Positions 4,396 through 48,299 of a stretch of 64,000 nt of DNA are shown one piece after another. Source of the stretch: Mustelus asterias (Eukaryota); the NCBI RefSeq assembly GCF_964213995.1, contig NC_135801.1:134354001-134418000 (forward strand). The letters run 5' to 3'. Positions within the stretch are counted from its first letter, which is position 1. Each line of letters starts with the position of its first letter. The position numbers and the translations under genes are program-made. A model generated the notes under the pieces. It was not told the origin of the DNA, ran no database searches, and saw only the letters and a list, made by a program, of their open reading frames with translations.

Positions 4396-4581
4396 CATTC
4401 TCAGAGATCGTATCATGGAAAGTTTAAGTGTCGGAATATTTATTGTGGAAAGTACCCATTCTAAGCAAGTCAGCAGAACAATAATAAAATCAAATGCATT
4501 CCATCCATTTCTCACATAGGGCATAGGATTTAGTGCAGTCACCTTCAAAATAGCTTCTATTATAAAAATAATTGATAAAAC
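4396..4581 (-). CDS. Nav2-like exon, DII-S2/S3/start of S4: [19 protein letters not shown]...[13 protein letters not shown]...LSMIRSLRM
   Basis: Acceptor ttaatacag, donor ATG|GTAAGT; 186 nt, phase 0-0; GWN.FDF motif. Confidence 0.95.
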
Positions 4582-7500: not shown

Positions 7501-10500
7501 ATCTTTTATTTGTCATTTATATTAATGATTTGGATGAGAATATAAGGGGCATGGTTAGTAAGTTTGCAGATGACACCAAGATTGGTGGCATGGTGGACAG
7601 TGAAGAAGGTTATCTCCAATTGCAGTGGGATCTTGATCAATTGGGCCAGTGGGCTGATGAATGGCAGATGGAGTTTAATTTAGACAAATGCGAGGTAATG
7701 CATTTTGGTAGATTGAACCAGGGCAGGACTTACTCAGTTAATGGTAGGACATTGGGAAGAGTTACAGAACAAAGAGATCTCGGGGCACATGTTCATAGCT
7801 CCTTGAAAGTGGAGTCACAGGTGGACAGAGTGGTGAAGAAGGCATTCGACATGCTTGGTTTCATCAGTCAGAACATTGAATACAGGAGTTGGGACGTCTT
7901 GTTGAAGTTGTACAAGACATTGGTAAGGCCACACTTGGAATACTGTGTGCACTTCTGGTCGCCCTATTATAGAAAGGATATTATTAAACTAGAAAGAGTG
8001 CAGAAAAGATTTACTAGGATGCTACCGGGACTTGATGGATTGAGTTATAAGGAGAGGCTGAATATACTGGGACTTTTTTCTCTGGAGCGTAGGAGGCTGA
8101 GGGGTGACCTTATAGAGGTCTATAAAATAATGAGGGCATAGACAATGTAGATAGTCAATATCTTTTCCCAAAGGTAGGGGAGTCTAAAACTAGAGGGCAT
8201 AGGTTTAAGGTGAGAGGGGAGAGATACAAAAGTGTCCAGAGGGGCAATTTTTTCACACAGAGGGTGGTGAGTGTCTGGAACAAGCTGCCAGAGATAGTAG
8301 TAGAGGCGGGTACAATTTTATCTTTTAAAAAGCATTTAGATAGTTCCATGGGTATGATGGGTATAGAGAGATATGGGCCAAATGCGGGCAATTGGGATTA
8401 GTTTAGGGGTTTTAAAAAAAAAGGGCGGCATGGATAAGTTGGGCCGATGGGCCTGCTTCCATGCTGTAAACCTCTATGACTCTATCTCACCTCTAGATTC
8501 CTAGTTATTTTTAACAACTTGCTGGAATCGCACGTTAACAGTCCATTAAACTCACCACAGAACATTAAGCCTGGTAATTAACAGTGAAAGTACCTTTTGA
8601 AGGAGGCAATGATGATTAATGCAGTGTCAATCAATCTCTGGTGAAGAAATTGAACAATCTTAACTGTGGAGTCTCATTCCTTCAGATGCTAGATTGTTCT
8701 TGGTGATTTTAACAATGCCAAATATTTAATCTTTTTCTTACTTTTCCTTTCAGTCTCTACTTAATCCAATCTTTCTTTCTTTCCATTTTTCCTTCTTTCT
8801 TTTTATTTCTCTTCTGAACTTGATTTGACTAATTCACCACCTCCTTCCCCCCTTCCTCTGTTTGTTTTTAAATCTTTAACTCTTATTTATAAAGGGGATA
8901 CAATGTCGGTCCATTACCCTCACTGCGCCATTTACAGTTCGTACTTCCGGAAAGTTTTGGAGTGAAAGATTTTTAAGCGAAGGATGCAGATAAAAGTCTC
9001 ATGCAGCTTGAAGCGAGTGCCCAACTCAACCAGATCCAGCCCATTAATGAATTTATAATTTTATATTTTCCTCAGACTATTAGCAGAAATATGACTTCAC
9101 ACCTGTTTTGAATTAAAAAGTCAGCCATATTCAACCCTCGAATTTGAACTGAAAGTGGTTGGTGTTGGAAATGTATGATTGGACTCATTTCACTGCAGGA
9201 TCAGCACTTAAAAAGATCTTTACCCCTTTTTTCACTCATTGGGGTTTCAGGTCCTAATCTTGGCCTAAAGTCCTAGTTTTTCTGTTCCTAGAGACGAGGT
9301 ATGATGGGTCTGACCAGGTGTATTGCCATAAACCACACACTGGATCTCAATGAGAGTGCTGGATTCAGGAACTCCTGAAGTAGAAAGACCCAACATCCAC
9401 ACGATTCCATGTTTGAAATGGGTAGAGACTTCACCTCAGTAACATTATATTCTGCACCCTCTCCTTTCCTTCTCCCCTGTGTACTCTACGAATGATGTGT
9501 TCTGTCTGTATAGAGCGCAAGAAACAAAACTTTTCACTGTATCCCAATACATGTGACAATAATAAATCAAATCAAATCAAATCAAACCATTGCAGATTCT
9601 GTTTATCTGGGTCCTCGCCTAGTTTTTGACCATTCTGGCAAACTCATGCTGAAACAGAAACATCCCAGAACTGTCATGGACTTTTGTGGCTATCAAGTTT
9701 TATTACATTGAATATTGCAGATAAATCACATACCTTTTGTTTATTATGTGCTTATCATGCACAATACTTACAGTGTTCCCACTTTCTAGGGCATGAGAGT
9801 AAGGTGCTTGATGGTAGTCTATTGATAGCAGAAGAGTATTTATTAGAATGCAGATTGTAATCACCCCTTCAAAAATTGGGTGTGAAACAAGCATCACTAA
9901 ATATTCCTGAAGTCTTAAAAATGTTGGACAACAGGTCCAAGAACAAAACTTTCGCTTCAATCTTTTTTTGAAGGCATAACATTTAGACTTTTTTTGATGA
10001 TCAGTTTCTTCATCGTCCTCTGCAGGTAAATCACAAAACATTCAATAGTGAAAACAGTGGCACTGGTCTAGCACTCAGATCAATATTAATATATAAACAA
10101 AAGCAAAGTACTGTGAATGCTGGAATTCTGAAATAAAAGCATAAAATACTGCTAATATTCAGCAGGCTTGGCAGCATTCACAGGGTGATAAAGCAGGACA
10201 GATGGTAGTGTAGTGATAATGTTCCTGACCTGATAATCCAGAGGCCCAGACTAATGTTCTGGGGACACGGATGGGGTCTGATCTGGATGGCAACTTGCCA
10301 GTGGTGGTGTGTTCCCAAGCATCTGCCGCCTTTGTCTTTCGAGTAGGTAGAGGTTGCGGGTTTGGAAGATGCTGCTGAAGGATGCTTGCTGAATTGCTGC
10401 AGTGCATCTTGCATATGGTACACACTGCTGCCACTATGTATCGGTGTTGGAGGGAGTGACTGTTCGAGCTGGTGAATGGGGCGCTAATCAAGCAGCTTTC

Positions 10501-13500
10501 TTTGTCCTGGATGGTGTCAAGCTTCTTCAGTGTTGTTGGAGCTACACTCACTTTTTTAAAAAAGTACTTTGATTTTAGTGCTTTTCATTTCCTGGTCAGC
10601 TGTCTGTGAGAATTCTTTAATACAATTTGTTGCATGGACAGCTTGATTACAACCCTATACTGGGAATTCCACTAAAGTTACAAACTATTGCTAGTCAAAT
10701 ATTGACTGTTGGCAACCATTGCCTCATTTTAAAAGCAAGTTCATTTAATTGTTGTCCTTGAAGTTGTGAAAAAGTTTAGCAGCTTGCTGTCAGCTTAACT
10801 TGATGATTAAACAACATTTAACAAGCTTGATTTTAGAATGAAATATCGACACAGTAAGAAACTGTTGCCAAAACCAATGCCAATACCTGTAATGTCTGTT
10901 CTCTACTCTGTCACATGAAATATATTTTCAAACTGAAATATGTTTCTATATTCCAACCAGTCTTAATGTGGAAAGTTTTCTCCAACTGTATGATCGGTAA
11001 TGAAGCCCTGGTTTCAAATTCCGAAACTCAACATTATTTAAATATTTGCAAACGAGAGGCCAAAGTAAGGATTGTCGGCTTGTGTGAAAAGGCCAAAAAG
11101 TACTAAGGTGCTCGATAGCACAAATGGGACGAATGCCAACACCAATAAAGACAACAGATTGACAGATATTCTACCAGGAACTCACCGAGCTGTGCCATTT
11201 CAGTTGCCCATGACATTACAGAATCCATTGAGAAACCTCGAGTCAGTTTTTTTCCACATTTCCGAAACCTTTCTTTTGGATTAAGATTATTCTCTCTTAC
11301 GCGCTAGAAAATAATTCGGCAAACATAATTATTTTTTAAAAGGACAGAAATATACTTGCTGGTAACCAATACTAGTAATAACATGGTGCATAATCAACAC
11401 CAAAATGTGTAACTTGTTCAAGTTCTCCTTTTCGGACTCTCAAGCCAGGAATACATAGCAGAACTTGGGCGCATAAAACATACACTCCCACTCCCAATCA
11501 AGCTGCTTGAGGTCATCCAGTAAGGCCACCAACTCACTTCCTCAGTGAAAGTCAGGGCCTTCCACCAGGCATGCTGCAGCCACTGGTGTAGCACTGCTTG
11601 GGAGAACTATGATAGGCAAAGTCAACTGGAAGACAGGCATTAATGGAATACACAATGGTAAATAGTACATTTTTGTACGAATGAATAATTGGATATGCTG
11701 TTGGACAAAGATGTTGTAAAAATGTTTCTGCTGGTGGCATTTATTGCAAGGTTTTGGTCAAAGTGGATGATACGATGCCACAGGTGGATGGGAAGGTGAG
11801 AATTGTGCAGCCATTGTGATGAAGAGATGTCTTCCGAAGGGAACCAGAGTTTGAGTATCTGCAGCAAAAGTATGCCTGCTACCCCTTTCCTCCATCCTCC
11901 TCTTCCTCCTCCCTCTTAAGTGACTTTGGGCAGTACCCGCATTACAGCGATGTTAGAGAGGATTCACCAGACCACTCCATGGGCTCTGTGGAAAGTGGGT
12001 AGAAGTGTGGCACAGCCTATTCCCTGACTTCAGGGCTTCCTGCAGAGCATGGTGTCTCATTTGCTTTTTTGTATATTTTTTTGAAATATGATACATCAAC
12101 TCAAGTGTGACTTCTGAAGCATGATGGACAGGAGAGCAAAGTTGTGATGGACAAGGCTAGGTAAACCATTTCTATTACACCAACAGATCACGTGGAAAAA
12201 TGGGGTGCTACATAAATGGTATTATCAAGGAGATTGACTTGCAAGCTTTGGCTAAGGCCCTTGAATCTTGGAACATGAGGATCAACACCACTTATTGCCA
12301 TCTCCACAACACCATCCATCTCAGCCTCTGTCTCAGTTTGCTGGCTGCTGAGATCCTTAATCCGTGCCTCTTTTAGCTCTAGATGTGCCTGCTCCAATGC
12401 TCTCCTGGCTGGCCTTCAATCTTGCATCCTTCATAAACTGGAGATCTTAGGGTCAAGCAGAGCACAGCTGCCCCATATCCTACTAACTTGTGCTAAGTCC
12501 TGTTCAGCCACCACCCAAATGTTTGCTGACCTCCATTAGCTCCCAGATCAGCATAAACTCAATTTGAGAAATTCTCAGCAGGAATACCCTGGGCAGGTAG
12601 CTTGAGTCAGCAAATTTCCAGGATGGGGGAAGTGTGGGGTGTGGCGGGGTGTGTGTGGGGTGGCGGGGGGGGGGGGGGGGGGGGGGTGGTGGAGTGCTGG
12701 CTGGAGGTGTGGTTGATGGAGGTGCGGGCTATGGGTTTATGCAGGATACAGTCAGGCCCACTGACCCTGAAAGCAGAGCACAAATGGCTACTATAGAAGG
12801 TTAGAAGGCTTGCCTCAGATCTGTGGGACTTTGCCCAATTAGCTCTTAGGCTATCTAATCATCACCCCTCACACCTTCTCTCATTCTTCCCCACCCAGTC
12901 CCCATGCCCCCTCCATGCCTTCCATGCCAACTCATGTCTATTACCCTTGCCATGGCCTTTTATAGCCCCCTGCCAGCTCATGCTCCCAGCCATCCCCAAT
13001 GCTACTTATAGACCCTTCCATACCTACTCACGTAGTATACACCATGTACAGAACCAATGGGCCATACAGTAACACTGTCATGTGTAGAACTATGAAAAAT
13101 AAAACACTCATTCACAAATCATCTTTTGAAATAATGCTGTTCCAACAATCCTTTAAGCTTTGTCAATCAGACATACCAGTAAATCACATCAATAGCAGAA
13201 GTTTCAAACATTTCTATGTTTCTATTTCATATCTCTTCATATTGTGTATCTAAACATTAAGACATTCACAAAAAAATCACAGAAAGAACAACTTATTCTA
13301 ACCACTTAAACATGTTAATTGAGCAAGTTCAATAGTTCTCCAATTGTCAAAACAAGTCCTACTGAGATAATTATTTTGTGAGTCTTTACATTCAGCCAAG
13401 CAGGTATAGTGAGGGCAGGTGTTGTTGGAAGATGTTGTGGGTAATTTGATGTGTCTTTTTAAAATCTTTGAAGTCATAGGTAGGACAACAGTAAGTATTT

Positions 13501-16500
13501 ATTAGCCAATATAAACTATCTACATAGGTAAAGTAAAAGTTCAAGCTAGTGCTGTCTTCATGCTTGCTTCTTTCTACACATGGCTCTGTCCAATACCACA
13601 CTGACTCCTAGGTGTTGTTCATCTGTTTCCTTACATCATTGTGAGCGCGATATTGTGCTTAGTCTCATGTTAACGCTTCATGTGCCGCACCCTTATACGA
13701 CAGGTGTAAGAACTCTTCTAATAGAACTGGATGACAGTAGTAACATGGATATGAAACTGGCTGAGTGACAGGAAATGAAGAGTGGCTGGTGAACGGTTGT
13801 TTTTCAGATGGAGGAAAGTTTATTGTGGAATTTGCATGGATTGATGTTAGGACGTCTGCTCTTCTTGGTATATATTAATGACCGAGGCATTGGTGTACAG
13901 GGAACATTTTCAAAATTTGCAGATGATACAAGACTTGGAAAAATTGTGAACTATGATAGGGATATTGTACAAATTCAAAAATACATAGACAGGTTGGTGA
14001 ATGAGTGGCCAAGTGGGAGATGAAATTGAATGCAGAAAGTGTGAGGTGATTAATTTTGTTCAGAAGAATGCAAAGAGACAATATAAAATAAGGGGTACAA
14101 TTCTAAAGCGGGTGCAGGAGAAGAGGGGTTTGGGTATTTATGTTCACAACTTATTACAGGTGGCAAGATAGGTTGAGAGCATGTTTGATAAAGCATACAG
14201 CATCCTAGGCTTTATCAATAGGGTCATAAGAGTACAAATACAAGGAAGCTTTGTTAAGCCTGTATAAAATGCTGGTTTGGGCTCAACTGGAGTATTGCGT
14301 TCAGTTTTGGATACCATACTGTATGTGAAGACATCATTAGAGAGGGGCAGAAAAGATTCAGGAGAATGGTTCCAGGAATGAGGAACTTCAGGTATTCAGG
14401 AAAGATTGAAGAAGAGAAGGTTGAGAGGAGATTTGCGAGTTATTCAAAATCATCAGGGGTCTAGGTGCAATCCAAAGTTTTCAGTGGTGGAAGGATTGAG
14501 AACCAGGGGGCACAAATTTAAGGGAATTGGCAAATGGAAGCAATGGAGACCTAAGGAAAAGCTTTTTCACGTAGAGAATGGTTAGGATCTGCAATGCACT
14601 ATCTGAGAGTGTGGTGGAGGGAGGGTGAATTGAGGTTTTCAAAGGGAAAATTGGATCATTATCTGAAGAGGTAAAATGTGCAGGGCTATCGGGAAAAGGT
14701 GCAGGAGTGACACTGGAGGAATTGCTCCCTCAGTGGGCCAGCAGAGACCCAATGGGCTGAATGGTCTTCTGTGTTGTAACCATTTTATAATTGCTGAAAA
14801 AAGAGACCTGTTGAAGCTTTTTGTCTTCCACTCATCAGGAATACCGACATAAGGGGAAAGCAACAATTTATACTGTATGAGAAGAACGTGCTGATTGGTT
14901 GGAAAATAGACTCTGATTAGTAGTGGCGTTGCCATGATGTCAACATTTTATTTGATAATCACTCATGAGGAGAGCCTGCGAGTGCTTTACAATCTTAAAG
15001 GTGCTATATGAATGCAAGGCATGTCATTAAATGAACTAAGTGAAAAATAATTGCTCATCTGCTGCCATCTTGTGGGCACAATTTACAGTCATTGGGATAC
15101 CAGTCATTTAGTGCATGAGAGTGGTTTTTGTTATTTTTTAAATTCCTCTCTCTGAGAAATTGACATTCTAAGCTCACCACTTTCTCTAAACAACTATATT
15201 TGAATCAAGGCCATACTTCGGCCAGCAGGAACAATGTACATTTTGCTGCTTTATCGATAATCAGTCGGGATTGTAGCAAGGAAAGTTGGCAAAATTGGGT
15301 CTAGCTTCACCTCATTAGAAATGCTGACCATCACCCCTTCGGACTCACTGCATGCAAATGGCAATGGATGGGAAGGGCCTGGGTCCACACACATTTCCTT
15401 GCATCCACCTGCTGCTTCCAGCGTTCGCCATATGAGAGGTGGCATCCCATCCGAGAAAGTGACAGTGATAGCTCCAAGGTTTTCCAATGGTTTTGCTGCC
15501 TCCTCATCTTTCAATGTGACCCCCACTAATCCCCCTTTGTGCATCTCTGTTGCGGGCTTCAAGGTAGCAATTTCCTGATCTTTAGGTAGGGCTCTTGTTC
15601 TTCTTTCTGGTGCTGCAGTTAGGGTCCCATTGCTGCACCACTACCATTTTGTGGCCATGCGGGTGATGAAGCCTAAAGGAAGAAACTTGCCTCGGGGCGT
15701 TTCACTATGTTAAAGTTTAAGTGTTGTTAAATGTAATTTCTGCTTTATTCCGAGACATACCAGCAGTGCTTTCTGTCGCCGCAATTCCAGAATGCGTTCC
15801 TCTTCTTCCTTTGCTTCTTGTTTCCTTTTGGCTTCCTTTTCATAGGAAGCTGCCACGACTGCCAGCACCAGGTTTACAATGTAGTGAGCACCAAACATGA
15901 CGACAACTATAAAGAATATAATGTAAAAGGCTCCACTAGCACGCAGTACCTGAAATGAGTTGGGGGAAAAATGAAATCTTCAATGTCAACGTAAAAAAAT
16001 GGAGAAAAGACACGTGGCATGAATAAAACTTTAGCACCGATGTTCGTACCACCACCACTGCACATTTGTTAGCAATTGCTACTTGGGATTTTCACGACTG
16101 TTGCACAGTCGCTCTACATAATGTGCAGTCCAATTAAATATTTACAACAAACAGTTTTTTAGTTGCAGTTGCTTGTTGATCAAGGTACTGGAGTAGGTTA
16201 CACTTGTGGTCTAGAGTGAATGATGTATAGTGTACATTGTGGTAGTAAATCAGCTTTCTTGTGTGGCATGGGGTGTGGATAAGCCTGGAGATTGATTCCA
16301 GAATGGCAGTGGTGTTATTATGTACTGTTGTGCTTGCCTGGTGTGTCAGTGCTGTTAGAGTTTTGATAGAAACCATTTAGCTGGTGCTGAGCATATTGCA
16401 AATGCCAGGTGTATGGTCCAGCGTTTTGCTGGCTGAACCAGCTGTGGGCTTCAAGGTTCAACCTGGCTTAACCTGAGGTACAGTGTGATTTTCTCAGATT

Positions 16501-19500
16501 GAACCAGAGTGGGCTGAATTTTAAATCTCGGTGGTTGATTGAACTAGTAAGCTAGCTGGCTGCCCAACAACCCAATTTGGTGCTCTGATCAATTAGAAAG
16601 GCCAAGCATCACTACTATTCCCTGCAGGCTCTGTGTAGAAAATGGGTTCTGAGGCCTGCACAATCTTGTGAGGCCTGAGGCTGGCCCTGTGCCCAAAAAA
16701 TGGTATTTTGTGGGTGGTGGGGTTGGGATTGGAATTTGGAGGGGTGGGGGGGGGGGGGGGGGCGGTGGTTGGTCAAACATAATTTGCATCATTTGCATCA
16801 TTTGACAGGGCGGAACCCAGTGAAGGCAATTGGCCTGGTGATTTCTGAACAACCCATTAGCTTCTCTTTGGCTGCAATGCCAACTGCAAAAAGGCAGGGT
16901 GTGCTTAGTGTACATTCGATTCAGTTCTGTCCTAATAAGGATCCTGATTAACATATTAAAGAGGCCCTCTTTCTGAAATAAGTAGGTGCTTCAATATCCA
17001 ACGTGTGTCCAGTTTGAAGATGGTAGCTGGAGCACCAACTCAAAGAGGGCAGTAAATTATTGTCAGCAACTGACTGCCCTGTTCACACTAGGCAGCCAAC
17101 AGCGAGGTAACATTCAATTCAATGCCAGGAAGGAAGTCTTTTTAACCACCACCCAATGGGGATAATCAGGTGGATTACAGTTAGGTGGATGCCCAACTTC
17201 TTGACTCTGTTAAAAGGCATCACTGCTGGGAGATGAAAGAGGCATTGTCTCAGATCTGTTTTGGTTGGAGGATTGCTGTATTATCTGATGCCAAGTTTCC
17301 CACTTACCAATAGCAGCAAACAACAACCAAAATGAATAAATGAATAAATGAATGAAGGAATGAACAAGGAAAAAAGAATGAAACAAGTAAAATATTTAGC
17401 TTAATAGGCAAATTAAACTTTCTTGAACAAGAATATCAAGTTCACACTTATTGTTCAACTAAATTACTTATATTCCAGATGCTAAGTAAGTCATGACTAT
17501 TCAGGAATTGTGAGACAAATGGATATAACGCTGCAAGGGGCAGTGGGAGAAAATATACAGAATTTATTGCAACTGATTAAGACCATAAGACCATAAGACA
17601 TAGGAGCAGAATTAGGCCACTCGGCCCATTGAGTCTGCTCCGCCATTCAATCATGGCTGACATTTTTCTCATTCCCATTCTCCTGCCTTTTCCCCATAAC
17701 CCCTGACCCCTTATTAATCAAGAACCTATCTATCTCTGTCTTAAAGACACTCAATGACCTGGCCTCCACAGCCTTCTGCAGCAAAGAGTTCCACAGATTC
17801 ATCACTCTCTGGCTGAAGAAATTCTTCCTCATCTCTGTTTAAAAGATCGTCCCTTTAGCCTGAGGTTGTGCCCTCTGGTTCTAGTTTTTCCTACGAATGG
17901 AAACATCCTCTCCACGTCCACTCTATCCAGGCCTCACAGTATCCTGTAGGTTTCAATAAGATCCCCCCTCATCCTCCTAAACTCCAATGAGTACAGACCC
18001 AGAGTCCTCAACTGCTCCTCATACGACAAGCTCTTAATTCCAGAGATCATTCTTGTGAACCTCCTCTGGACCCTTTCCAAGGCCAGCACATCCTTCCTTA
18101 GATATGGGGCCCAAAACTGCTCACAATACTCCAAATGGGGTCTGACCAGAGCCTTATACAGCCTCAGAAGTACATCCCTACTCTTGTATTCTAGCCCTCT
18201 CAGCATGAATGCTAACATTGCATTTGCCTTCCTAACTGCCGACTGAACCTGTATGTTAACCTTAAGAAAATCTTGAACAATGACTCCCAAGTCCCTTTGT
18301 GTTTCTGATTTCCTAAACATTTTCCCATTTAGAAAATAGTCTATGCCTTCATTGCTCCTTCCAAAGTGCATAACCTCACACTTTTCCGCATTGTATTCCA
18401 TCTGCCACTTCTTTGTCCACTCTCCTAACCTGTCCAAGTCCTTCTGCAGGCCCCCTGCTTCCTCAATACTACCTGTCCCTCTACCTATCTTTGTATCATC
18501 TGCAAACTTAGCAACAGTGCCTTCAGTTCCTTCCTCCAAATTGTTAATGTAAATTGTGAAAAGTTGTGGTCCCAGCACTGACCCCTGAGGCACACCACTA
18601 GTCACCGGCTGCCATCCTGAAAAAGACCTCTTTATCCCCACTCTCTGCCTTCTGCCAGTCAGCCAATCTTTATTCATGCCAGGATCTTACCCTTAACACC
18701 ATGGGCTCTTAACTTATTTAACACTCTCCTATGCGGCACCTTGTTAAAGGCCTTCTGGAAATCTAAATAAATCACGTCCATTTGTTCTCCTTTATCTAAC
18801 TTCCTTGTTACCTCCTCAAAGAACTCTAACAGATTTGTCAGACATGACCTCTCCTTGACAAAGCTGTGCTGACTCAGTCCTACTTTATCATGCACTTCCA
18901 AGTACTCTGCAATCTCATCTTTAATAATGGACTCTAAAATCTTGCCAATGACTGAAGTCAGGCTAACCTGCCTATAATTTCCCGTCTGCTGCCTCCCTCC
19001 CTTTTTAAATAGCGGTGTTACATTAGCTACTTTCCAGTCCTCTGGTACCCTCCCTGCCTCCAGTGATTCCTGATAGATCACCACCAATGCCTCCACAATT
19101 TCCTCAGCTATCTCTTTTAGAACCCTGGGGTGTAGTCCATCCGGTCCAGGTGATTTATCCACCTTCAGACCTTTCAGTTTCCCCAGTACCTTCTCCTTAG
19201 TGATGGCCACTACACTCACCTGTGCCCCCTGACTCTCCTGGAGCTCTGGCATCCCACTGGTGTCTTCCATCATGAAGACTGATGCAAAGTAACTATTCAG
19301 TTCCTCTACCATTGCTTTGTTTCCTATTATTACTTCTCCAGCCTCATTTTTCAGTGGTCCAATGGCTATTTTTGCCTCTCGCTTGTCTTTTATATATTGA
19401 AAAAATCTCTTTTTAAATACAACTGATCTGTTTCATCTATAAATTGCTGTCACTTTGTCACTAGAATACATACCAAGTTATAGGTGTTTTCCCAGTAATC

Positions 19501-25500: not shown

Positions 25501-28500
25501 CTAAATTACTATGCCTTGTGATATACTCTTGTGGTAACTTTGGTGGCAGTTTACTAAAATGCCCTGACTCTTGGCTCAGACTTGAATACACTGAATTGGG
25601 GCCTGGCATGGCATTCCAATTCAGGCTTGGAAGAGCAGAGTCATGCCACTGCTCACAAGGCCAATGGCACAAACAAGGTGAAGCAAGCAGCAGAGATTTC
25701 AAATGCCATAATTCCAATGTTTTTGACCTCCAGACCTGAAAGAATAAGGTTAGCATTTGTACATCATATCTGGCTAAAGAACAGCGAAAGCAGAGATCCA
25801 CTATGGATCCATCCCTTGCGCTCCCTAGCAGGCCACTCTGTAGCCCAAACATTCTGGCTCTCCAATATGGCAGGTGGTTTAGATGTACCCCTAGTGGTAG
25901 ATCTTGCAAAGATCTCTACTCTCCCTGACCATTAAAACTTTAGTGGGGTCAGGTGTGGAGGTTCTTGGCAGTTACACTCAGCACCAACAATTTGAGCTGA
26001 ATGTTCAAAAGTTTCCTTTGTTTAATTAGCCACACTGAACTTACAGCACCTTAGAAGGGGCTGGGGGCATGGTGGCACAATGGTTAGCACTGCTGCCTCA
26101 CAGCAGCAGAGTCCTGGGTTCGATTCCCAGCTGTCTGTGCAGAGCCTGCATGTTCTCCCCATGTCTGTGTAGGTTTCCTCCAGGTCTTTAGTTTCCTCCC
26201 ACAGGCTGAAAGACGTGCTGGTGAGGTGCATTGGCCATGCTAAATTCTCCCTCAGTGTACCCGAACAGGCCCCGGAGTATGGCAACTAGGGGATTTTCAC
26301 AGTAACTTCATTGCAGTGTTAATGTAAACCTACTTGTGACACTAATAAATAAACTTTAAATACAAAAAAAAACTTTGGTGTAAAGTCAAATGATTGGCGG
26401 GTTGAAGTACAGAGATGCCCAGCTTGGCACAGCACAGTTACAACAGCCTCCTCCAATGGTTCATTGGCATTTGCATCAGAGTCGAAATAGGAACACAACT
26501 GTGAGCAGGAATTTAAAAATTAAGCAAGTAAGTATGTGGATACAAGTTTTGACCAATTCTTAACGTACAGAAATGATCAACCTCAAAATAATTGGTGGGT
26601 AGAGGCGGGAGGTACAGGTAAGACCATGATTGGCCCATTGGCTTTTTTCATCATTGAGACACTTTGCTTCCCAAAAAGAGGGCGGAACTATGCACTGCTC
26701 AGGTGCCCTTGCTTGTGCCAGTGGCTGACCCAAGACATGAGAATGATCCAAATTCCAAGATTTGGGATATTGTCTTTGAACTGGGCAGGTGAAAGAGTGG
26801 ACCCAGGAACTTCAGGACCAATGGTTTTATCCTCTATGATAATAGAATAGTGAAGTTACATGTCCAACAGAAATGAAAGACACTTAAGAATGTGCAATTT
26901 ATTTACTGTTAGCAGGCATAGGTACGTTATCAAATTAATGTTCTGTTCTACAATGCAAAACTGTTCACATTTTCTCACCTGGTAAAATTGCAATCATCTT
27001 AAGTGCTCGGAAAGCCCTTAATGCTGATAATCCAGGAATTTTTGGAAATGCCAACGTCAAGTAACTGAAAATAAAGAAAGAATGTAATGCAACATTGGTA
27101 AATATAACAGAGCTGGTTTCTGGATTCAAACCTTTGAGTTTCACACACAGGCTGCACATTTTGGGAAATTATGGGCTTGCCGATTTCTGAGGCTGACAAG
27201 CAAGCCACTCACTTTTGGACATTGACCTCCTGGTTTTGCCAGTGAAGTTAGTATGGCTGACCAAAAATTTTATTTGCTTTTTGATTTAAGTGTTCACCAA
27301 CCTAAGTTCACCAATATCTGGCAAATTAATTTTCTACAACATGGCTGCCGCTTTCCTTTTCAGGAGGAAAGAATTTTAGGGAATGGTATGTGGTGCCTCG
27401 TATATAAAACATTGTTATAAAAGCAACAGAGTGCATGTAATGTGCCATTCCCACATCCTATGAAGTCCTAAGACCTGTGCCAGTTTCTTTTGACCAGGAT
27501 CCACATGTCGGAGGGGGGGTATCTAGGGTAAATAGATGGGGTTATGAGGATAGGGCCTGGGTGGAATTGTAGTCGGTGCAGACCCGATGGGCTGAATGGC
27601 CTCCTTCTACACTGTAGGGATTTTGTGATTCTATGCGTTACTTCTTCCATGTCAACACCATTAAAGGAGATGAAAAACTAAAAGTGATATTGTTGGCAGC
27701 CCTCTGATTTTCAACATGATGAAATGTATGACCTATCCGTGTGGCACAGTGGCACAGTGGTTAGCACTGCTGCCTCACAGCGCCAGGGACCCGGGTTCGA
27801 TTCCCGTCTTAGGTCACTGTCTGTGTGGAGTTTGCACATTTTCCCTGTGCCTGCGTGGGTTTCTTCCGGGTGCTCCAGTTTCCTCTCACAGTTCAAAGAT
27901 GTGCAGGGTAGGTGGATTGGCCATGCTAAATTGCCCCTTAGTGTCAGTGGTACTAGCATGAGGTTGTGGAGATAGGGTTTGGGTGGGATTGTGGTCGGTG
28001 CAGACTCGATGGGCTGAATGGCCTCCTTCTGCACTATAGAGATTCTATGATTCTATGATTGAAACTGAGACTGGACTAATTACAAGATTTATTAACTTTA
28101 GAAACCTACACATCTGAAAGTCTGGAGGACAGTAGAATGCGCTGGTAATGTGGCCACTGAGGATATGTGTTGTTTGAATAAAAATGTGAAGGAAGTATCA
28201 GCGGTGCTAATTCAGGAGGGAGATGCTCCGACACAAAAGGCTTGATGTCAACTGTCAGGATAGACCTGCTAAAGATATTATGATTTGTAGCTGCCAATTC
28301 TACACAGCAGTGCTCAGTGAACTGAGGAGGCTAAATTGCATATACTACAAGTGAGGATCTAGTTGAAAAATGCCAAGGAGAAAGTAATAAAATGTCACTT
28401 ATCCTGCCTCTCAAGCTTCTTTGCTGGGAAGATGGCAACACATTTGAATGCACTCTGCCTTCCATTTGGTGAGCTGCTGCTTAGCTGTTGAATCATAAGA

Positions 28501-34500: not shown

Positions 34501-37500
34501 GATCTTGAATACTCCTCCAAATACTCAAAGTTAACAAATATTCTATTCATTTTTTTCTGGAAATAACACTGAAAGAAGTTGGCATTTTACTTTTTTATTC
34601 TTTAAGCTATTTTATGCTTCTACATACTTTTTAAGTTCATTCTGTTTTTCAAATAATTCTGAAGTTAATAGTGCAAACCTATTAAATGTCACTGAAGCAA
34701 AACATCCTTGCCAAAAATCAGCCCTCAGGAATCAGCCTCGGACAATTGCTTACAATTGTAAGCAAAATCTGCAGTTGCTAAAATCTGCAGTTGCAAAACA
34801 ACTTTGAAATGCTCTTGGAGAAAGAAAATATACTCATTATCTTTAGAACAATAACAACGTTTAACTTACGCCAACAAAACTACTGTAAAGTCCAACCAGT
34901 TCCAGGGATTCCGGAGGTACGAAAACGTATGTAGTGCAAAGCCTCGGGACAGGACCTTAATAATTACTTCTAATGTATATATTCCTGTAAAGATGAGACT
35001 AAACAGATAAATAAAGCGTTAAGACAATATAAACACAAGTCATTTTAATCTGATATAACTTACTCATTTAAGTAAATCTTATTTACTAACTTCTTTAAAG
35101 TTCTGGTTGCAATTAACTTCAGCTGTTTATGGGGGGGGGGAAGCATTCAACACTTAGCAATTGTTGGAAAGAACAACAAAAAGGCAACTTGATGCATAAC
35201 AAAGACTTAAGGCGCTAATAATTACTATCATAACACAAATGCATCGGGAAAAATGTACTCTCTTGTGGATGGAAATGTAATGTAAAAGGAGGGGCCAAAA
35301 AGGAAGACAATTTGAACTCAGAAAACTGCTATTGACAAAAATGCAACTTTTTGCTTAGAAGAATCTGATCTATAACTTTGTTGCTTATTTTGTTTAAGTG
35401 CAAACAAAACTTCAATGCTTATCCTTAAATAACTCATATTTCTAAAAAGGAAAACTTTCTGTATTAATACCAAAGCCATCACCGAATACTATTACCACGG
35501 GCGGCACGGTAGCACAGTGATTAGCACTGCTGCTTCACAACGCCAGGAACCTGGGTTCGATTCCTGGCTTGGGTCACTGTGTGGAGTTTGGTGGCTGAAC
35601 ATTCTCCCCGTGTCTGTGTGGGTTTCCTCCGCATGCTCCGGTTTCCTCCCACAGTCTGAAAGATATGCTGGTTAGGTGCATTGACCCGAACAGGCGCCGG
35701 ACTGTGGCGACTAGGGGAATTTCACAGTAACTTCATTGCAATGTTAATGTAAGCCTTACTTATGACGAATAAAAAAACTTTACATTACCAAAGGTGAGTA
35801 TTTTCTCAATTGTGGGACTAAACCATTCAGGTTATAGAATAGTCTAGTTCTGATGTTGCATCAGTAGTCTTAGCAACCTTGAAGTAGAGACAGGTAAACA
35901 AACTACCAGGGTTCCCATTCCTGATTGTGATAAGTGACTGGAATGTAGAAGTGTTTGGCTATTAGGTGAGTACAGAATGACCAAATAGGCTACTGACACA
36001 AGTGAGTACATACAATGGATTTAGATAACATTTTAATATTTTTTCTATGCCTTGTGCTTTTCTGATTCGCCCATGTGTTGTTCTGTCTCAATATCAGTCC
36101 CTCTGTTGCTTCTCTCTCCTGGTATTCCTCTGTCACCATTAACATTATCCCCTTCCTGGTTTCATCTCTTTTTCTAAAATAGTGTAAATTCATGGACTCT
36201 GTGGTTCCAGCAGAGAGCCAGATGTCAAGGAAACACAAAGTGATTAATCATTGTTACAGTTTTCTAGCCCTGTCTTTGGCCCATTCTCCTGTGTCTTCCT
36301 GCTGAAAGCACAGAGCTGGCCAATTAACTTCCCTGTCTCATGCTGCCTGAATTGTTTTCCTGCTTCACTCCATGAAAAAGGAAAATGTCCATAGAAATAC
36401 TAAATAGAGATGGACAGCTAGAGAGAGGGAGAGAGAGGAAACATTTTTTTAAAAACTACCCAAGCAAACTAAGTGATTCAGATGTTAATATAACCCAGAA
36501 GTGCCTTTTAACAATTATCTGAAGCTGGGACAAGGGAGTGCCATTAAATTGTTCTTAGGTGCTTATTATATTTTCCCCCTTTCAAACTATGGATAGAGAC
36601 AGGAAGTGCTAATCCTGCTTTCAGCAAGGGTCATTTCATACATCAGCAGCCAGATTGCCTCAGGCAGCTGATCAATGATCACCATTGATGACTGTTATCA
36701 CTACAAGTTTATTGAGTGATTAAAGTTTGCAGTTTATTAAAAGAAAATAACTATTATTTTCCGTGCTTTCAATGAGTACACAGCTTGACATGGAATGGAG
36801 ATGATATTCAACCTGGCAATGCCAATGCTTCAAAGTAAACTTTTATCTTTATCACTTGACAATGATATAATGGAATGGATTGCTTGCATATTATAAAATG
36901 CATCTGATTCTCATCCTATTGACTTCACTGGATTATGGACCATATAGAATTATGGAGAACTTTATAGAACAAAAAGAGGCCATTCAGCCTAGCTTGTCCC
37001 ATGTATGTGCTCCACATGAGCCTCCTCCCAATCTGACCTTATCATTGTATCTTTCTGTCCCCTCCGCCCCTCTGCACTTATCTTGCTTCATCTTAAATCT
37101 AACTGTGCTGATGCCTCAACCACTCCCTATGGTAGTGAGTTCCACATTCTCATCATTCTCTGAGTAGACATCACATAGTGAATAATGAGATTTACTTCCA
37201 TGTATCTTAATCTTTCAACGGGTTTCAGCATAAATAACTTTAATATCTCAATTCAGGGCTATTTACTAAAAGTATAATGCCCCACTAAATAAAGAACTAA
37301 ACAAATATGCTGTCAAAAATTTACCATTCCTTATAATAAAGGGTCATTTTGTCTGTAGTCTGCTTTCATAAGAGCATAAATCCCAGACAGGGCTGTAATA
37401 TTCTGATTGCATGACCTGTAATCCTATCTAATGCAACATCACATGAAGAACAGATACTACAATAAATTACCAGTAAGATACACAATAAAGAATCAGATAG

Positions 37501-40411
37501 AGGTAAACATCACATTAGATATATACTACACATGCTATATACCACACATACTCACTCAACAATGGCAAAATTCTTATTCATTGCCAGCAATAACATATTC
37601 ACAAATATTGTTCCAATGATTATTAAATTAAAAGATGTAATTACATGTTAAGGAAAAGTGATCAGAGTTCATTCAACAAATATACACATTTAAAAAACAA
37701 TTTAAAAATGTTGACAGCAATTCAGGACAATTAATCCATTGGTGAGTATGTCGCATAATTTTCCTGGACAAACATTTAATTATCAAAATTGAATGTTCCT
37801 GAGTTGTCTAATGATGGCAGAACACTTGGTCTAATGTGTTTTTAGTACAGTATCGATAGATAGGTATTATAACAACAATGGGCCAATCTTATGGTTTCGC
37901 CCGTCCATCGTTCGGCAAGGCGAGGTGGTAAGATTGGGTGAGGGGTAAAAATTTCAGTTCGTGCCTGGTTTCTCGCCTATTCCAATCATACGGCTCTGTT
38001 ATGGCAGCGAGATCAGCTTTGCACCCAGAAAAGGCGCAAAGTCAATTTCAATATTAATGAAATGCTTGGCATGTCATTAGTGAGTCCTGGATGCTATCGT
38101 ATGGGCTCATTTGAACTTACATACTCACTGGTCAAGTTTCTCACCGGCGAGAATTACAGCTCGTCTCCAGCAGCAGAGACCAGACATGATGGCCATGGCA
38201 GGGGAATCGGACGCAGGGCTAGGCAGTACCTATTGGGCTCCTTGGCACTGCCCACCAGGCACCATAACTATGCCAGGGGAAGTGCCAAGGGGATGGAGCT
38301 TGAGTGCGGGTGGGACCTGAATGGGGGTGGAGCTATGATGGGGGGGGGGGGAGGGAAGAGGGGAGCTCTGCAGGGATAGGAGGGAGGGAACTCTGCAAGG
38401 TAGTGATTGGGGGAGGAAGGGGAACTCTGCAGACAGGGATGATTGGGGAGGGAGGGAACTTTGCATACTGGGGTGATTGGTGGGGTGGTGTGGGTAGCTG
38501 ACACAGGGGGCGATCAGTGGGGGAGAGGGGTTCCCAATGTCTGTGGGTGGGTGGGGGAGGGTGTGGAGGGGGGGGTTGCTGGCAGGAGATCTCCCTGGCA
38601 GATTGGGGCACCTGTGCAATGGCGCCCCAAGAGCTCAGCAGCCAGCTTCTCTGGCGAGTGCCACCACCCCTCCTCCCCCCACCCCCCCGCCGCCCCCCCA
38701 CACCTGGCCTTGCTGCCGCGAATTGCATCCTGGCACTTCTTTTGCACTTAGTGCCATAAGATTGTGACTTGCAGCTTGCCGAATAAACTGGAACTATTCT
38801 TTCCCATTTTCTCACTCGTTCAGCACTTAGAATTATTTTGGTAAGATCATGCCCCATGTTTCTGTTATATATGGCATTGTTAAAGAACCAACAACAACAT
38901 CTCCAATTGGTAAAGTAAAAAAAAGTAACATTTCTGTGTCCAAAGATAATAACTTCCATGGACATTTCAAAAGGCAGTGCTGTCTGTAATGGCAGCTTGA
39001 GTATAAACAAGGTTCTTTAAGATGAAGAATAGTGATATTTTCTGGCCACTGGCTAAGTCAGATAATCTGTACTGTACAGGGAAACCATCTGTATTTGTTT
39101 GCCCATTAAGTACATTCTGGATCATTTGAAAAAATACAATGGCGTATAGTTAGGTCCTGAATCACATTTTTAAAACTGCCGATGTAGTAACTCATAACAC
39201 AAAGTTTATTTTTCTGATCTTGCTGCTGTGGAATGCAATATAAAGTGGCCTTTCCCACACCAGTGGAGTCCTGCGGCACTCTTGAAGAATCAGTTCTTAA
39301 ACATGTGTGTGCTATTAGAAGATAAAATCTTTGAAATTATTCATGCTGGCAGGCTAACACCATCATCGTTTCCAGCATGGGAACAGCTAAGCATATGGCA
39401 CGCTGGATGTTGGGACTTGGGCCTCGATTATATGAAGCCAGCGAACTCCTGGGCATCACTAGAAAACTCACCGGTGAAGTGGATTTCTATCTCAGTTGGT
39501 CCTGGGAGAGCATAGAAAGTGTTCAGGATTTCGAGGTGGGGCTGAGGTGATCAGAAGAAGTGAGGAATAATTGTGAGGGAAGAGAAAGGGGCTGAGCGGG
39601 GGAGGGTGTGTAGAACTAGTTTTCAGCACTGCAGTGAAGCAGGGAGGAGCACTCCTTCACTGCCACACTTTCAGGTAAATATATCACAGAAAACTTAACA
39701 TTTGGGTAATGACCTCCAAATTCAAGCACTCAAGGGCTCAATTTTGCAAAGGATGTCTGAAAATTGCATATGCAGAGGATTGAATGACTCTTTCAGGTGC
39801 AATATCCAGATGTCTATTTTGCTACCTTTATCAATATGATGCAGTTCTGGAATGCAACACTTACTCCACCTGCCATATTGGATGCTCAGATACATGTTTT
39901 GTACCTGAAAAGCATGGAAAAACCCATCTGGTTCACTAATGTCCTTTAGGGAAGGAAATCTGTCGTCCTTACCTGGTCGGCCTACTTGTGACTCCAGAGC
40001 CACAGCAATGTGGTTGACTCTCAACTGCCCTCTGAAATGGCCTAGCAAGCCTCCCAATTCAAGGCCAATTAGGGATGGGCAATAAATGCTGGCTGGCCAG
40101 TGACGCCCATGTCCCACGAATGAATAAAAAAAATAAAAAGAAAGAAAACTACCTTTGTTATAATGACGTTTTATTGTACAGTGGCAGTCTTTCTGTGAAC
40201 ATTTTGAAATTACATAACCTATTTGAATACAGAATGTCAATGTCAAGATAGTCCGAACAAACCACTTTAGGGTAAAAGGATATTGATGTGTCATTGCACG
40301 AACCGCCACTTTTCGCACTGGGTGATTGTGTGCAAACAGAAAGAGAGACTTCTGGCAGCTGAAGCGAAACAAGTACTGGGCATTGAATCTTGTGGCTAGC
40401 ACACAGAAGGT
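4396..40411 (-). CDS. Nav2: Voltage-gated sodium channel alpha subunit, Nav2 (NaCP60E/DSC1-like) class; partial, 11 exons covering the N-terminal region to DII-S4
   Basis: Manual splicing of 11 exons (128, 81, 129, 86, 204, 61, 145, 189, 118, 248, 186 nt = 1575 nt) gives an uninterrupted 525-codon frame with compatible phases and valid splice sites. Motifs include [53 protein letters not shown] and GWNAFDF. The first coding exon and everything 3' of DII-S4 were not found in the window. Confidence 0.9.
4880..7212 (+). mobile_element. Degenerate PIF/Harbinger-like DNA transposon (Myb/SANT NAIF1-like ORF remnant), interrupted by a V-SINE
   Basis: Imperfect TIRs GGGCTAGAAATTG ... CAAATTGAGCCC; remnant peptide [14 protein letters not shown] (about 5624-5665) resembles the K.AHNRRE..TGGG motif of Harbinger Myb/SANT proteins. 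Confidence 0.5.
6039..6335 (+). mobile_element. HE1-like V-SINE
   Basis: tRNA-like head, V-domain (gtggagtttgcacattctccccg...gggtttcctccgggtgctc) and CR1-like tail attctatg. Confidence 0.85.
7338..9042. mobile_element. TIR-bounded non-autonomous DNA element split by a CR1 insertion
   Basis: GGCTGGATCTTGTTG at 7339 and CAACCAGATCCAGCCC ending at 9042; ATTAAT on both flanks. Confidence 0.6.
7504..8486 (+). mobile_element. CR1 LINE, 5'-truncated (RT C-terminal part and 3' UTR)
   Basis: ORF 7530-8141 with SKFADDTK and LVRPHLEYC; ctctatga tail. Confidence 0.95.
9440..9586 (+). mobile_element. LINE 3' end with (AAATC)n tail
   Basis: cttttcactgtatcccaatacatgtgacaataataaatcaaatcaaatc, a typical fish LINE terminus. 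Confidence 0.6.
9772..10019 (-). CDS. Nav2-like exon, end of linker and DII-S1: [10 protein letters not shown]...[10 protein letters not shown]...[24 protein letters not shown]...ESGNT
   Basis: Acceptor tttacctgcag, donor ACT|GTAAGT; 248 nt, phase 1-0; WxCC and ITICI..NTL motifs. Confidence 0.95.
11186..11303 (-). CDS. Nav2-like exon, DI-DII linker: [39 protein letters not shown](E)
   Basis: Acceptor ttattttctag, donor G|GTGAGT; 118 nt open frame, phase 0-1, which exactly bridges the flanking exons. No conserved motif, so the call rests on splice sites and phase. Confidence 0.78.
13745..14785 (+). mobile_element. Old, degenerate CR1 LINE
   Basis: SKFADDT remnant with frameshifts and a CR1 3' UTR. 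Confidence 0.85.
15761..15949 (-). CDS. Nav2-like exon, DI-S6 and start of the DI-DII linker: [39 protein letters not shown]...RRQKALL
   Basis: Acceptor ctcatttcag, donor CTG|GTATGT; 189 nt, phase 0-0. Confidence 0.96.
17578..19405 (-). mobile_element. Young CR1 LINE, 5'-truncated, RT domain in two frames
   Basis: ORFs 18674-19312 and 17934-18677 ([31 protein letters not shown]); (TAAGACCA)n tail. Confidence 0.97.
19474..19618 (-). CDS. Nav2-like exon, DI pore loop: [48 protein letters not shown]
   Basis: Acceptor ctttacag, donor TTG|GTATGT; 145 nt, phase 2-0; selectivity-filter Asp codon at 19500-19498. Confidence 0.97.
20348..20686 (-). mobile_element. HE1-like V-SINE
   Basis: Reverse complement of the tRNA head, V-domain and tail. 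Confidence 0.85.
21555..22240 (-). mobile_element. L2-like LINE 3' fragment
   Basis: cttgcatttatatagtgcctt terminus followed by degenerate ORF2 C-terminal sequence ([12 protein letters not shown]). Confidence 0.6.
22311..22371 (-). CDS. Nav2-like exon, DI extracellular loop: [19 protein letters not shown](G)
   Basis: Acceptor poly-T-acag, donor GG|GTAAGC; 61 nt, phase 1-2; conserved CGN..G.G. Confidence 0.92.
23290..24350 (-). mobile_element. Two CR1 3' fragments
   Basis: [19 protein letters not shown] and LERxQxRFTR motifs; (AAGAACA)n tail. Confidence 0.85.
24814..25017 (-). CDS. Nav2-like exon, DI S4-S5 linker/S5/turret: [45 protein letters not shown]...YIQNK
   Basis: Acceptor tgtttctgcag, donor T|GTAAGT; 204 nt, phase 1-1. 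Confidence 0.96.
26066..26358 (+). mobile_element. V-SINE (HE1-related subfamily)
   Basis: ggcatggtggcacaatggttagcactgctgcctcacag head, V-domain, aataaa tail. Confidence 0.8.
26979..27064 (-). CDS. Nav2-like exon, DI-S3/S4: [28 protein letters not shown](G)
   Basis: Acceptor tttctttattttcag, donor G|GTGAGA; 86 nt, phase 2-1; S4 R/K repeat. Confidence 0.94.
27741..28059 (+). mobile_element. HE1-like V-SINE
   Basis: Full head, V-domain and (attctatg)n tail. Confidence 0.88.
28514..28832 (+). mobile_element. HE1-like V-SINE
   Basis: Full head, V-domain and tail. Confidence 0.85.
29094..29428 (+). mobile_element. tRNA-derived SINE, second family, with LINE-derived tail
   Basis: A/B-box-like tggcccaatgg and ggttcaaatcc; tail agggatgggcaataaatg shared with 39917-40137, 23110-23180 and 53300-53370. 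Confidence 0.75.
29945..33510 (+). mobile_element. Old CR1/L2-clade LINE carrying two nested CR1 insertions
   Basis: Degenerate EN/RT frames ([11 protein letters not shown]-like, KAMGPDNI) at 29945-31435 resume at about 32735; CR1 (+) at 31440-32730 is itself split by CR1 (-) at 31907-32390. Confidence 0.8.
34870..34998 (-). CDS. Nav2-like exon, DI-S2/S3: [42 protein letters not shown](A)
   Basis: Acceptor tttatctgtttag, donor GC|GTAAGT; 129 nt; hallmark [11 protein letters not shown]. Confidence 0.96.
35499..35781 (+). mobile_element. V-SINE (HE1-related subfamily)
   Basis: tRNA-like head and V-domain; same tail as 26066-26358. Confidence 0.8.
37556..37636 (-). CDS. Nav2-like exon, DI-S1: [26 protein letters not shown](D)
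   Basis: Follows the U12 branch site and AC; donor GA|GTGAGT; 81 nt, phase 2-2. Confidence 0.92.
37637..40283 (-). other. U12-type (minor spliceosome) AT-AC intron
   Basis: 5' end ATATCCTTTT (40283-40274); branch site TTTTCCTTAAC (37657-37647); terminal AC at 37638-37637. Removal restores the frame (CA|A = Gln). Confidence 0.95.
37880..38854. mobile_element. Non-autonomous TIR element with internal G-rich minisatellite, inside the U12 intron
   Basis: GGGCCAATCTTA ... TAAGATCATGCCC termini; terminal region homologous to 2025-2075. Confidence 0.7.
40284..40411 (-). CDS. Nav2-like channel exon (N-terminal region): [42 protein letters not shown](Q)
   Basis: Acceptor tttttatttttgcag; ends at the U12 donor ATATCCTTTT; phase 0-2; resembles the Nav2 TFCVVSKRF...RF...SLFLF motif. 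Confidence 0.93.
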
Positions 40412-40876
40412 CTGCAAAAATAAAAAGTAAAAAATGAGAAGAAACTTCAACAGCTGTCCAGCATTTGTAGTGGATTATTGAACAAAGGACTAAGCAAACA
40501 TTTCCGATATTATGTCAAGTTATCAGTAGAACACCCATTAGGGGCAATTCTCCTTCAACAAATGTTTGTAAATCTGGATCATTTGGAGTATATATAATTA
40601 AAACTCCTAACTCTACTGCATATTCAATGTGCACGCAAATATACACCTTATTTTATGTTGGGTGTAATTCAACTTAATTTACCTTTGCTGCTGGAATTCC
40701 TTTTGGCAGACAGCTGCTTGTACAGTTGAGAAGAACCAGATATCTTAACAATAACAAGTACGACTAGAGTTCTTTCCTTGGTATACTTTTCAAATGAATG
40801 TTCAGCTGCGTTTGTGGATTTGTTTAATATGATGACTAACGTGCAAAAATTGCATTTCAGGATTTTTATATACAGA

Positions 40877-41200
40877 TGTAGGAGGTCTTGTGTCACAGTG
40901 GGTAGCATCCCTGCCTTTGAACCAGAGGCTCCGGTTTTGAATCCCACGCCAGGACTTGATAGCCAAGGAAGGTGCGTCTATAACGTGGCCAACTGGTTGA
41001 GCATGAACCTGCAAAATCCTTCCAACACACCAATGGCAGGCGGTAAGAGCGGGAGAGACTTCTGATAACCATACTTGATGTAGAGTGGTGCCCCGCAAGC
41101 TATAAGCCTCTGGTGACTGACTAGCGACCTATTCCAGGAAAAGCCTCGTTATGGGAACAGATGAAAGTCTGCCTTGTGCAGCATTTGGTGCGGGAAGACC
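40877..41200 (+). mobile_element. tRNA-derived SINE, third family
   Basis: tgtgtcacagtgggtagc ... ggttttgaatccc A/B-box-like head. Confidence 0.55.
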
Positions 41201-42968: not shown

Positions 42969-43044
42969 GATATGCAAGGCCAGAGCTGAAAGAACAGGGA
43001 TGTCGATTCATTAACCATCCCTACGAAAACAAAAAGAAAGTAAG

Positions 43045-47242: not shown

Positions 47243-47344
47243 GGAAGGACTGCCTTTGTGGAAGGACTGCCTTTGTGGAAGGACTGCCTTTGTGGAAGGA
47301 CTGCCTTTGTGGAAGGACTGTCTAGGCGGAAGGTCTGCCTTTGT
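47243..47344 (+). repeat. 17-bp minisatellite (GGAAGGACTGCCTTTGT) x6
   Basis: Four perfect and two variant adjacent units, no spacers. Confidence 0.95.
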
Positions 47345-48123: not shown

Positions 48124-48299
48124 GTTCTTTGACAGCTTGACAGTTGTTCGACAGCGCTGACTATTCTTTGACAGCTTGACAGTTATTTGAAGTTTTGCCA
48201 GTTCTTTGACAGCTTGACAGTTGTTCGACAGCGCTGACTATTCTTTGACAGCTTGACAGTTATTTGAAGTTTCGCCGGTTCTTTGACAGCTTTGACAGG
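48124..48299 (+). repeat. 77-bp tandem repeat (about 2.3 units) rich in TGACAG
   Basis: Units start at 48124, 48201 and 48278. Confidence 0.92.

Follow-up and report, generated by a model that had tools for sequence, protein, structure and literature searches.

A stretch of 64,000 nucleotides from the genome of the shark Mustelus asterias (G000:C1:134354001-134418000, in the following called the window) carries on its minus strand 11 exons of a gene for a voltage-gated channel of the Nav2 family. The gene is unbroken, occurs as a single copy, and specifies a pore with the filter residues D-E-E-A. Our joint reading is that of a slow channel which would pass calcium and sodium and likely plays a role in ampullary electroreceptors; we assign to it a probability of about 0.5. 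The family is already known in vertebrates; what is added here is an expression entry from sturgeon, the missing first exon, and the loss of a voltage sensor charge in domain I.

The complete model consists of 25 coding exons with 5,217 nt, encodes 1,738 amino acids (aa) with no internal stop, and spans 152.6 kb. By means of tblastn with shark homologues, 24 exons were placed, 11 of them inside the window; a Pfam Ion_trans scan of the genome indicated more exons of the gene to its left, and the sequence examined beyond the window comprised 140 kb leftward and 60 kb rightward. As proposed in the original prediction, the window exons, whose borders were computed from coordinates between 40411 and 4396, splice into 1,575 nt or 525 codons free of stops, and the motifs quoted there are in place on the minus strand (TFCVLATRF starts at 40411, the 14-residue domain I pore motif at 19518). 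The TFCVLATRF exon is, however, not the N-terminal start it had been taken for: it begins at a splice acceptor and thus lacks the start codon of the gene. The true first coding exon was found by tblastn of lamprey N-termini (E 1e-14). It lies 25 kb further upstream, shortly past the right edge of the window (L015:1338-1667, corresponding to G000:C1:134419338-134419667, minus strand), and comprises 110 codons with an ATG and a phase-0 GT donor. The model is 93.7% identical to the protein of Scyliorhinus canicula (1,564 columns) and 100% identical over 329 aa to P0307, which is labelled Mustelus asterias by its source; the genome is indeed shark-like, as had been supposed from the letters of the window.

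Family placement, pore and integrity

According to a motif reading of the four pore loops, the filter is formed by D380, E721, E1215, and A1511; the domain IV loop reads LTTAAAWN, and no lysine occupies the filter position of domain II or III. Besides these loops the model contains four S4 segments, and four Ion_trans stretches were detected in P0195, which is 93.7% identical to the model. The III-IV linker reads VTVLTEDQ compared to DIFMTEEQ in the Nav1 rows, that is, TVL takes the place of IFM; an IQ motif (LTIQKAFR) is found in the region of residue 1694. The check suggested originally, a reading of the filter in domains II to IV and of the III-IV motif, therefore yielded E, E, A and TVL. 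The DEEA filter and the lack of IFM are given as hallmarks of Nav2, and every expressed Nav2 channel is described as slow and as passing calcium and sodium (PMC6259924). By analogy with the characterised invertebrate channels, the shark Nav2 is predicted to permeate both ions and to inactivate slowly. An xxxxL motif at the C-terminus is usual in Nav2, as a tendency and not as a defining rule (PMC6259924); the shark protein ends in SRPNSPLT, as do most elasmobranch rows, and its PLT does not correspond to this PDZ-type motif.

With the invertebrate Nav2 channels (Drosophila NaCP60E/DSC1, cockroach BSC1, amphioxus, echinoderm, mollusc) the shark protein has in common the DEEA filter, loops of the LITLD(Y/F)WE, ATFEGW, and xGWN type, four Ion_trans domains, the IQ motif, and the lack of IFM; the identity is about 41% over domains II-IV. 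The contrast of motifs drawn in the original prediction holds in proteins: Nav1 rows read LMTQD(F/Y)WE and TF(I/V)V(L/I)N(K/R)GK-like sequences, whereas invertebrate Nav2 rows read LITLD(Y/F)WE and TFCVVSKRF-like ones. The III-IV motif distinguishes vertebrate Nav2 (TVL or MLL) from invertebrate Nav2 (MFL/VFL). With vertebrate Nav1 (SCN1A-11A) the shark channel shares the four-domain plan, charged S4 segments in domains II-IV, CGEW in domain II, and the IQ motif; it differs from Nav1 by glutamate instead of lysine in domain III, by asparagine instead of aspartate in the domain IV outer ring, by the lack of IFM, and by its position in a separate clade. The ankyrin-binding motif of the II-III linker, which was seen in all three full-length Nav1 controls (P0102, P0095, P0068), was detected neither in the model nor in eight other vertebrate Nav2 rows, some of which lack the linker. 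This is why the shark Nav2 is probably not a channel of the axon initial segment or the node.

Three trees, which were computed from domain III to the IQ motif with 40, 20, and 22 rows, agree in placing the vertebrate DEEA rows beside the invertebrate DEEA rows. With the 22-row set, analysed under a mixture model, the clade of the ten vertebrate DEEA sequences receives 100/100, and so does the branch which separates every DEEA row from the six DEKA rows (amphioxus and scorpion Nav1 among them). When vertebrate Nav1 and the vertebrate DEEA rows of the 20-row set were constrained to group, this cost 56 log units and was rejected by the approximately unbiased (AU) test (p 3.1e-5, LG+G4). The trees left out most near-duplicate isoforms and bird SCN5A rows, and species outside them were assigned by identity and motifs. 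Note that they were drawn on DEKA rows and contain no Cav or NALCN outgroup; of the phylogeny envisaged originally, they cover the comparison with Nav1. With a DEEA instead of a DEKA filter and no nesting in Nav1 in trees or AU test, the earlier Nav2 call stands, and the gene almost certainly belongs to this family. A divergent Nav1 (SCN) paralogue, whose filter lysine was swapped for glutamate, would be in agreement with the long stem of vertebrate Nav2 (0.81 changes per column in the 22-row tree), with an identity of the model to invertebrate Nav2 (41%) that barely exceeds the one to chicken SCN5A (38%), and with trees lacking a Cav or NALCN outgroup. Against it stand the AU result and the 100/100 support of the mixture-model tree, the Nav2-type pore motifs in domains I, III, and IV, and the last exons of genome G000, among which one is of Nav2 type and four separate ones are of Nav1 type; we consider the chance of such a paralogue close to negligible. 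Membership in Nav1 (SCN) was rejected as a candidate, as DEKA, IFM, the ankyrin-binding motif, and nesting among vertebrate Nav1 paralogues were all absent. The four Nav1-type last exons (G000:C2, C11, C14, C75; L022-L025) are near SCN5A-like, SCN4A-like, and two other vertebrate Nav1 rows.

Several features set the vertebrate Nav2 channels apart. Across lamprey, shark, ray, chimaera, reedfish, and beluga rows, the domain I S3-S4 stretch occurs in two 17-residue variants, which are two residues shorter than in Nav1. The S4 segment of this domain has three basic residues, compared to four in the Nav1 and invertebrate Nav2 rows read; counting back from the conserved ALK, a serine occupies the outermost arginine position. 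The register was fixed by the conserved ALK-to-PGLKT stretch, and the outer charge is lost in all vertebrate Nav2 rows covering the region. Because of this loss, the gating of vertebrate Nav2 probably differs from that of insect Nav2. The N-terminal 110 aa have been seen only in vertebrate Nav2: over 106 aa, the product of exon 1 shares 57.5% identity with sturgeon P0473, its identity to lampreys amounts to 28-32%, and beyond the sturgeon and lamprey models it gave no match among 473 proteins, no Pfam family, and no usable match in the ESM Atlas. None of the 28 public chondrichthyan models checked includes this exon. In domain IV, the residue after the filter position is alanine in chondrichthyan Nav2 alone (27 of 27 motif matches), in contrast to glycine in the other 337 of 337 (473 proteins). 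For a putative parallel of this exchange to tetrodotoxin-resistant snake channels, a literature search gave no paper, and we do not rely on it. At the pore mouth, the residue following the domain I filter aspartate is tyrosine or phenylalanine in sharks and rays, arginine in bichirs, and histidine in sturgeons (P0024-P0026, P0031, P0033).

Comparing the last exon with contigs of two other organisms gave 21 differing sites, of which 16 are synonymous and 5 are replacements (ratio of replacement to synonymous differences, pN/pS, 0.09; binomial P 4e-7). All five replacements are located in the cytoplasmic tail, and there is no indel. In run X5 this exon differs at 14 of 1,007 bases, the flanking pieces at about 6-7%. 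The last exon is under purifying selection; the selection analysis proposed originally has thereby been answered for this exon only. Two further small runs of unrecorded kind, X3 and X4, were not used as evidence: on L006 their contigs cover the last exon and downstream sequence, not unique intron bins or exon 24 of the 25, they end at different places (the X4 contig 2 bases past the acceptor), and none joins exons. The public model seen for this locus, P0307, is a 350-aa piece named PaFPC1-like that ends in an intron read-through, as might be expected of a recently silenced gene with a still undecayed frame. Such a state is very improbable given 25 exons over 152 kb with no stop, the pN/pS of 0.09 against close relatives, and an identity of 84-94% to a ray and a catshark. 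For the 13 exons downstream of the window part, where the original prediction had allowed for a pseudogene, neither a stop nor a frameshift was found.

Range among vertebrates and a candidate role in electroreception

Vertebrate Nav2 is known for lamprey, elephant shark, and coelacanth (Zakon et al. 2017, as cited in PMC6259924, PMC8192821, and PMC12021243), and was said to be lacking in ray-finned fishes and tetrapods (PMC6259924) or in bony vertebrates (PMC10120453). Compared with these earlier cases, the shark copy is an elasmobranch one with a complete model; it falls into the same clade and is likewise single copy, with an identity of 75-79% to Callorhinchus, 62-66% to Latimeria, and 46-52% to lamprey. 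The chimaera and coelacanth rows have a DEEA-type pore, whereas domain IV of lamprey Nav2 reads NTAGGWN, which makes its filter DEEG by alignment. With the last exon as query, 42 rows among the best 120 of 3,968 had an identity of at least 52%, and the remaining rows of at most 48%. The 42 rows belong only to sharks, rays, chimaera, coelacanth, bichirs, sturgeons, paddlefish, lampreys, axolotl, and newt. An axolotl query (best 120 of 959) listed these jawed groups again and no further vertebrate; a 50%-cluster search, in which close relatives are collapsed, added only Pleurodeles (P0320). Altogether, at least 35 named vertebrate species were matched: 11 sharks, 7 rays, the chimaera, the coelacanth, 2 bichirs, 5 sturgeons/paddlefish, 5 lampreys, and 3 salamanders. 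Among the matches listed, there was none from hagfish, gars, bowfin, teleosts, frogs, or amniotes in protein annotations.

Bichir and sturgeon models, which stood at 65-69% in the last-exon query among the matches listed, carry D-E-E-A; the loss statements in PMC6259924 and PMC10120453 are thus too wide. The range given in the original prediction is right with regard to lampreys, elephant shark, and coelacanth, as the citing papers state, but bichirs, sturgeons, paddlefish, and salamanders have to be added to the clade. The three salamander models are 83-93% alike and fall inside the vertebrate Nav2 clade at 100/100; their domain IV loop is of Nav2 type in all three, and the domain III glutamate is present in two. 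In the ESM Atlas, the newt protein met general channel clusters only. Inside the III-IV linker, the axolotl model P0040 contains about 270 unrelated residues with Myb/SANT-like Pfam matches, probably a transposon-derived mis-prediction. Sterlet, beluga, and paddlefish each have two models on different contigs (P0188/P0189, P0033/P0190, P0032/P0034), which would fit the retention of both copies after genome duplication. In public annotation the orthologues are named type 2, 3, 4, 8 or 9 alpha-like, para-like, or PaFPC1-like, and few 60E-like, much as the original prediction of an 'SCN-like' label had anticipated; the catshark orthologue has the accession XP_038648881.1. We found no paper on Nav2 in elasmobranchs, bichirs, sturgeons, or salamanders, nor one combining Nav2, electroreception, and sodium channel, in a literature search that left subscription journals largely outside.

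The range is consistent with the distribution of an ancestral sense. Hagfishes have no electroreceptors; the ancestral electrosensory organs disappeared in gars, bowfin, teleosts, and anurans, and the lateral line itself in amniotes (PMC5429088). The lineages with no Nav2 match, among the matches listed, are the ones which that paper names as lacking or losing electroreceptors, and all of the at least 35 vertebrate species matched belong to lineages that kept ancestral electroreception. Expression points the same way. In a comparison of dissected sturgeon ampullary organs, neuromasts, and skin, the entry TRINITY_DN91069_c5_g1, named 'NACP60E', has over skin epithelium a log2 fold change (log2FC) of 3.57 in ampullary organs, i.e. 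about 12-fold, and of 2.63 in neuromasts (PMC7720607, Table S1). The profile is nearly equal to that of KCNA5 (3.66 / 3.03); CACNA1D has 2.3-2.6 / 1.3-1.8. NACP60E is the sole row of the voltage-gated sodium channel family in this table, where 'scn' has no match, and a text search of the main text gave no mention of it. Since a transcript of a Nav1 gene ought to have been given an SCN name from vertebrates, we infer the row to be sturgeon Nav2. Taken together, these data suggest that the shark Nav2 works in the electroreceptor cells of lateral-line ampullary organs, a proposal to which we give even odds.

A number of observations weigh against this proposal. Lungfish and caecilians are electroreceptive, and no protein of either was among the matches listed, which weighs as much as the absence of gar and bowfin. 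All absences rest on protein annotations and word-limited searches: the axolotl query listed no lamprey, and a search for split forms, which found no N-terminal half from lungfish, caecilian, or salamander, is uninformative on absence, as it missed the known positives P0041 and P0320. In salamanders no whole channel was seen, as the three models reach domains III-IV or less. The sturgeon row is a single de novo transcript named by its best database match. It was filed in the list common to both organs, since the difference of -0.94 (FDR, false discovery rate, 0.027) is below the authors' cut-off; the lists hold 2,074 of 22,647 unigenes (9%), the replicates are one pool split in two, and lens and olfactory genes on the ampullary-high list are a sign of mixed tissue (PMC7720607). 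The paddlefish lateral-line-enriched supplement contains no sodium-channel gene. In skate, the inward current is put down to Cav1.3 (PMC5429088), and no sodium channel is named in the catshark ampulla section of PMC11979771 or, according to term searches, in the skate preprint 10.1101/274449 and the 2025 sturgeon paper PMC13069148. Finally, the literature searched reports neither a function nor a recorded current for any vertebrate Nav2.

The elevated level in neuromasts and the filing as common to both organs would equally suit a working Nav2 with a general sensory or neural role, for example in hair cells, ciliated epithelia, or lateral-line afferents, that has survived, as other 'cryptic' vertebrate genes have, in lineages of slow evolution. 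The agreement of its range with electroreception, which is carried by only about four independent losses and has no lungfish or caecilian among the matches listed, would then be due to chance; moreover, insect Nav2 is tied to smell (PMC6259924). However, Kcna5, which is ampullary-only by in situ hybridization in paddlefish (PMC5429088), was likewise filed as common in the sturgeon lists (PMC7720607). Teleosts and aquatic frogs retain neuromasts and yet have no match among the matches listed. Gar and bowfin usually keep 'cryptic' genes of this kind, but gave no match among the best 120 of 3,968 in the last-exon query, where bichir and sturgeon were at 65-69%. We therefore regard a general role as unlikely. 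The absence of the first coding exon from all 28 public chondrichthyan models would agree with weak or restricted expression in a rare tissue of any kind, so that the main job might lie outside sense organs, e.g. in calcium entry in sperm, gonad, or secretory epithelium, with the lateral-line signal being incidental. For this we found no positive data, and the sole expression row points to lateral-line organs; it is an improbable explanation.

If the channel does act in the electroreceptor cell, it would be a slow one passing calcium and sodium, which could provide a small, sustained inward current near rest and might thus help Cav1.3 to keep the cell near threshold. In a wider and somewhat more tentative view, vertebrate Nav2 would be an ion channel that has been overlooked in the ancestral electric sense: after a remodelling on the vertebrate stem, it would have persisted alongside lateral-line electroreceptors in lineages from lampreys to salamanders and disappeared with each loss of these, and it would pass calcium in electroreceptor cells beside Cav1.3. 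The remodelling is suggested by the long branch, the N-terminus of its own, and the lost charge of the domain I sensor.

Exon structure and neighbourhood

All exons are on the minus strand. In-window positions 40412..64000 belong to intron 1 (24,926 nt in total, GT-AG). Among those placed by tblastn and border computation, exon 2 (40284..40411) encodes the cytoplasmic N-terminus starting with TFCVLATRF, exon 3 (37556..37636) S1 of domain I, exon 6 (24814..25017) S5 and turret, exon 7 (22311..22371) turret sequence, and exon 12 (4396..4581) S2-S4 of domain II. Border computation gave exon 4 (34870..34998; domain I S2-S3), exon 9 (15761..15949; domain I S6), and, together with motif reading, exon 5 (26979..27064; domain I S4 with its three basic residues). 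Exon 8 (19474..19618) was assigned by motif reading and carries the pore loop of domain I with D380 in LITLDYWE. Exon 10 (11186..11303; I-II linker) was found by tblastn, and its junction is matched by P0307; exon 11 (9772..10019; I-II linker and domain II S1) results from border computation and P0307. Two acceptors were shifted upstream by us (12 and 33 nt) to AG sites behind pyrimidine tracts; for the exon at 10019, the one shifted by 12 nt, P0307 matches the junction letter for letter. Left of the window, 13 further exons lead to the stop at G000:C1:134267016 (L014-L006) and carry E721, E1215, A1511, and the IQ motif.

Of the 24 introns, 23 are GT-AG and one, at 37637..40283, is an AT-AC intron of the minor (U12) class with a U12 donor and a branch point 17 nt upstream of the acceptor. 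SCN genes, too, have an AT-AC intron in the early part of domain I, and the shark Nav2 has this in common with vertebrate Nav1. In PMC6259924, Nav2 and Nav1 are said to share twenty intron positions. The donor at G000:C1:134294006, after the III-IV linker exon, is one base off the U12 consensus; this GT-AG intron has no U12 branch point and may have belonged to the minor class before it changed to the major one.

The Pfam search covered 98 of the 119 open frames with at least 110 codons. Two Kazal_2 exons (E 6e-12 and 3e-12; L005:2212-2583 and L005:582-920, minus strand) lie about 10-12 kb downstream of the Nav2 stop; this neighbour gene on the same strand might serve as a synteny marker where remnants of Nav2 are sought in gar, frog, or caecilian genomes. 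RVT_1 fragments of LINE-type retrotransposons occur in introns and flanks, within the window at 55402-58224 (+), 17937-19432 (-), and 7455-8138 (+), and also in L001-L003 and L019; L001:1358-3820 contains an 821-aa frame of endonuclease and reverse transcriptase.

Implications for the Nav2 family

With the complete reading frame, whose 5' end is absent from the 28 public chondrichthyan models checked, the channel can be cloned and recorded. The published range is corrected in that the loss of Nav2 is not general in ray-finned fish and tetrapods. The candidate tie to a sense organ concerns animals that are open to in situ work and knockouts, such as sterlet, axolotl, and catshark. If it is true, the set of electroreceptor currents would gain a component, and losses of Nav2 would mark losses of a sense.
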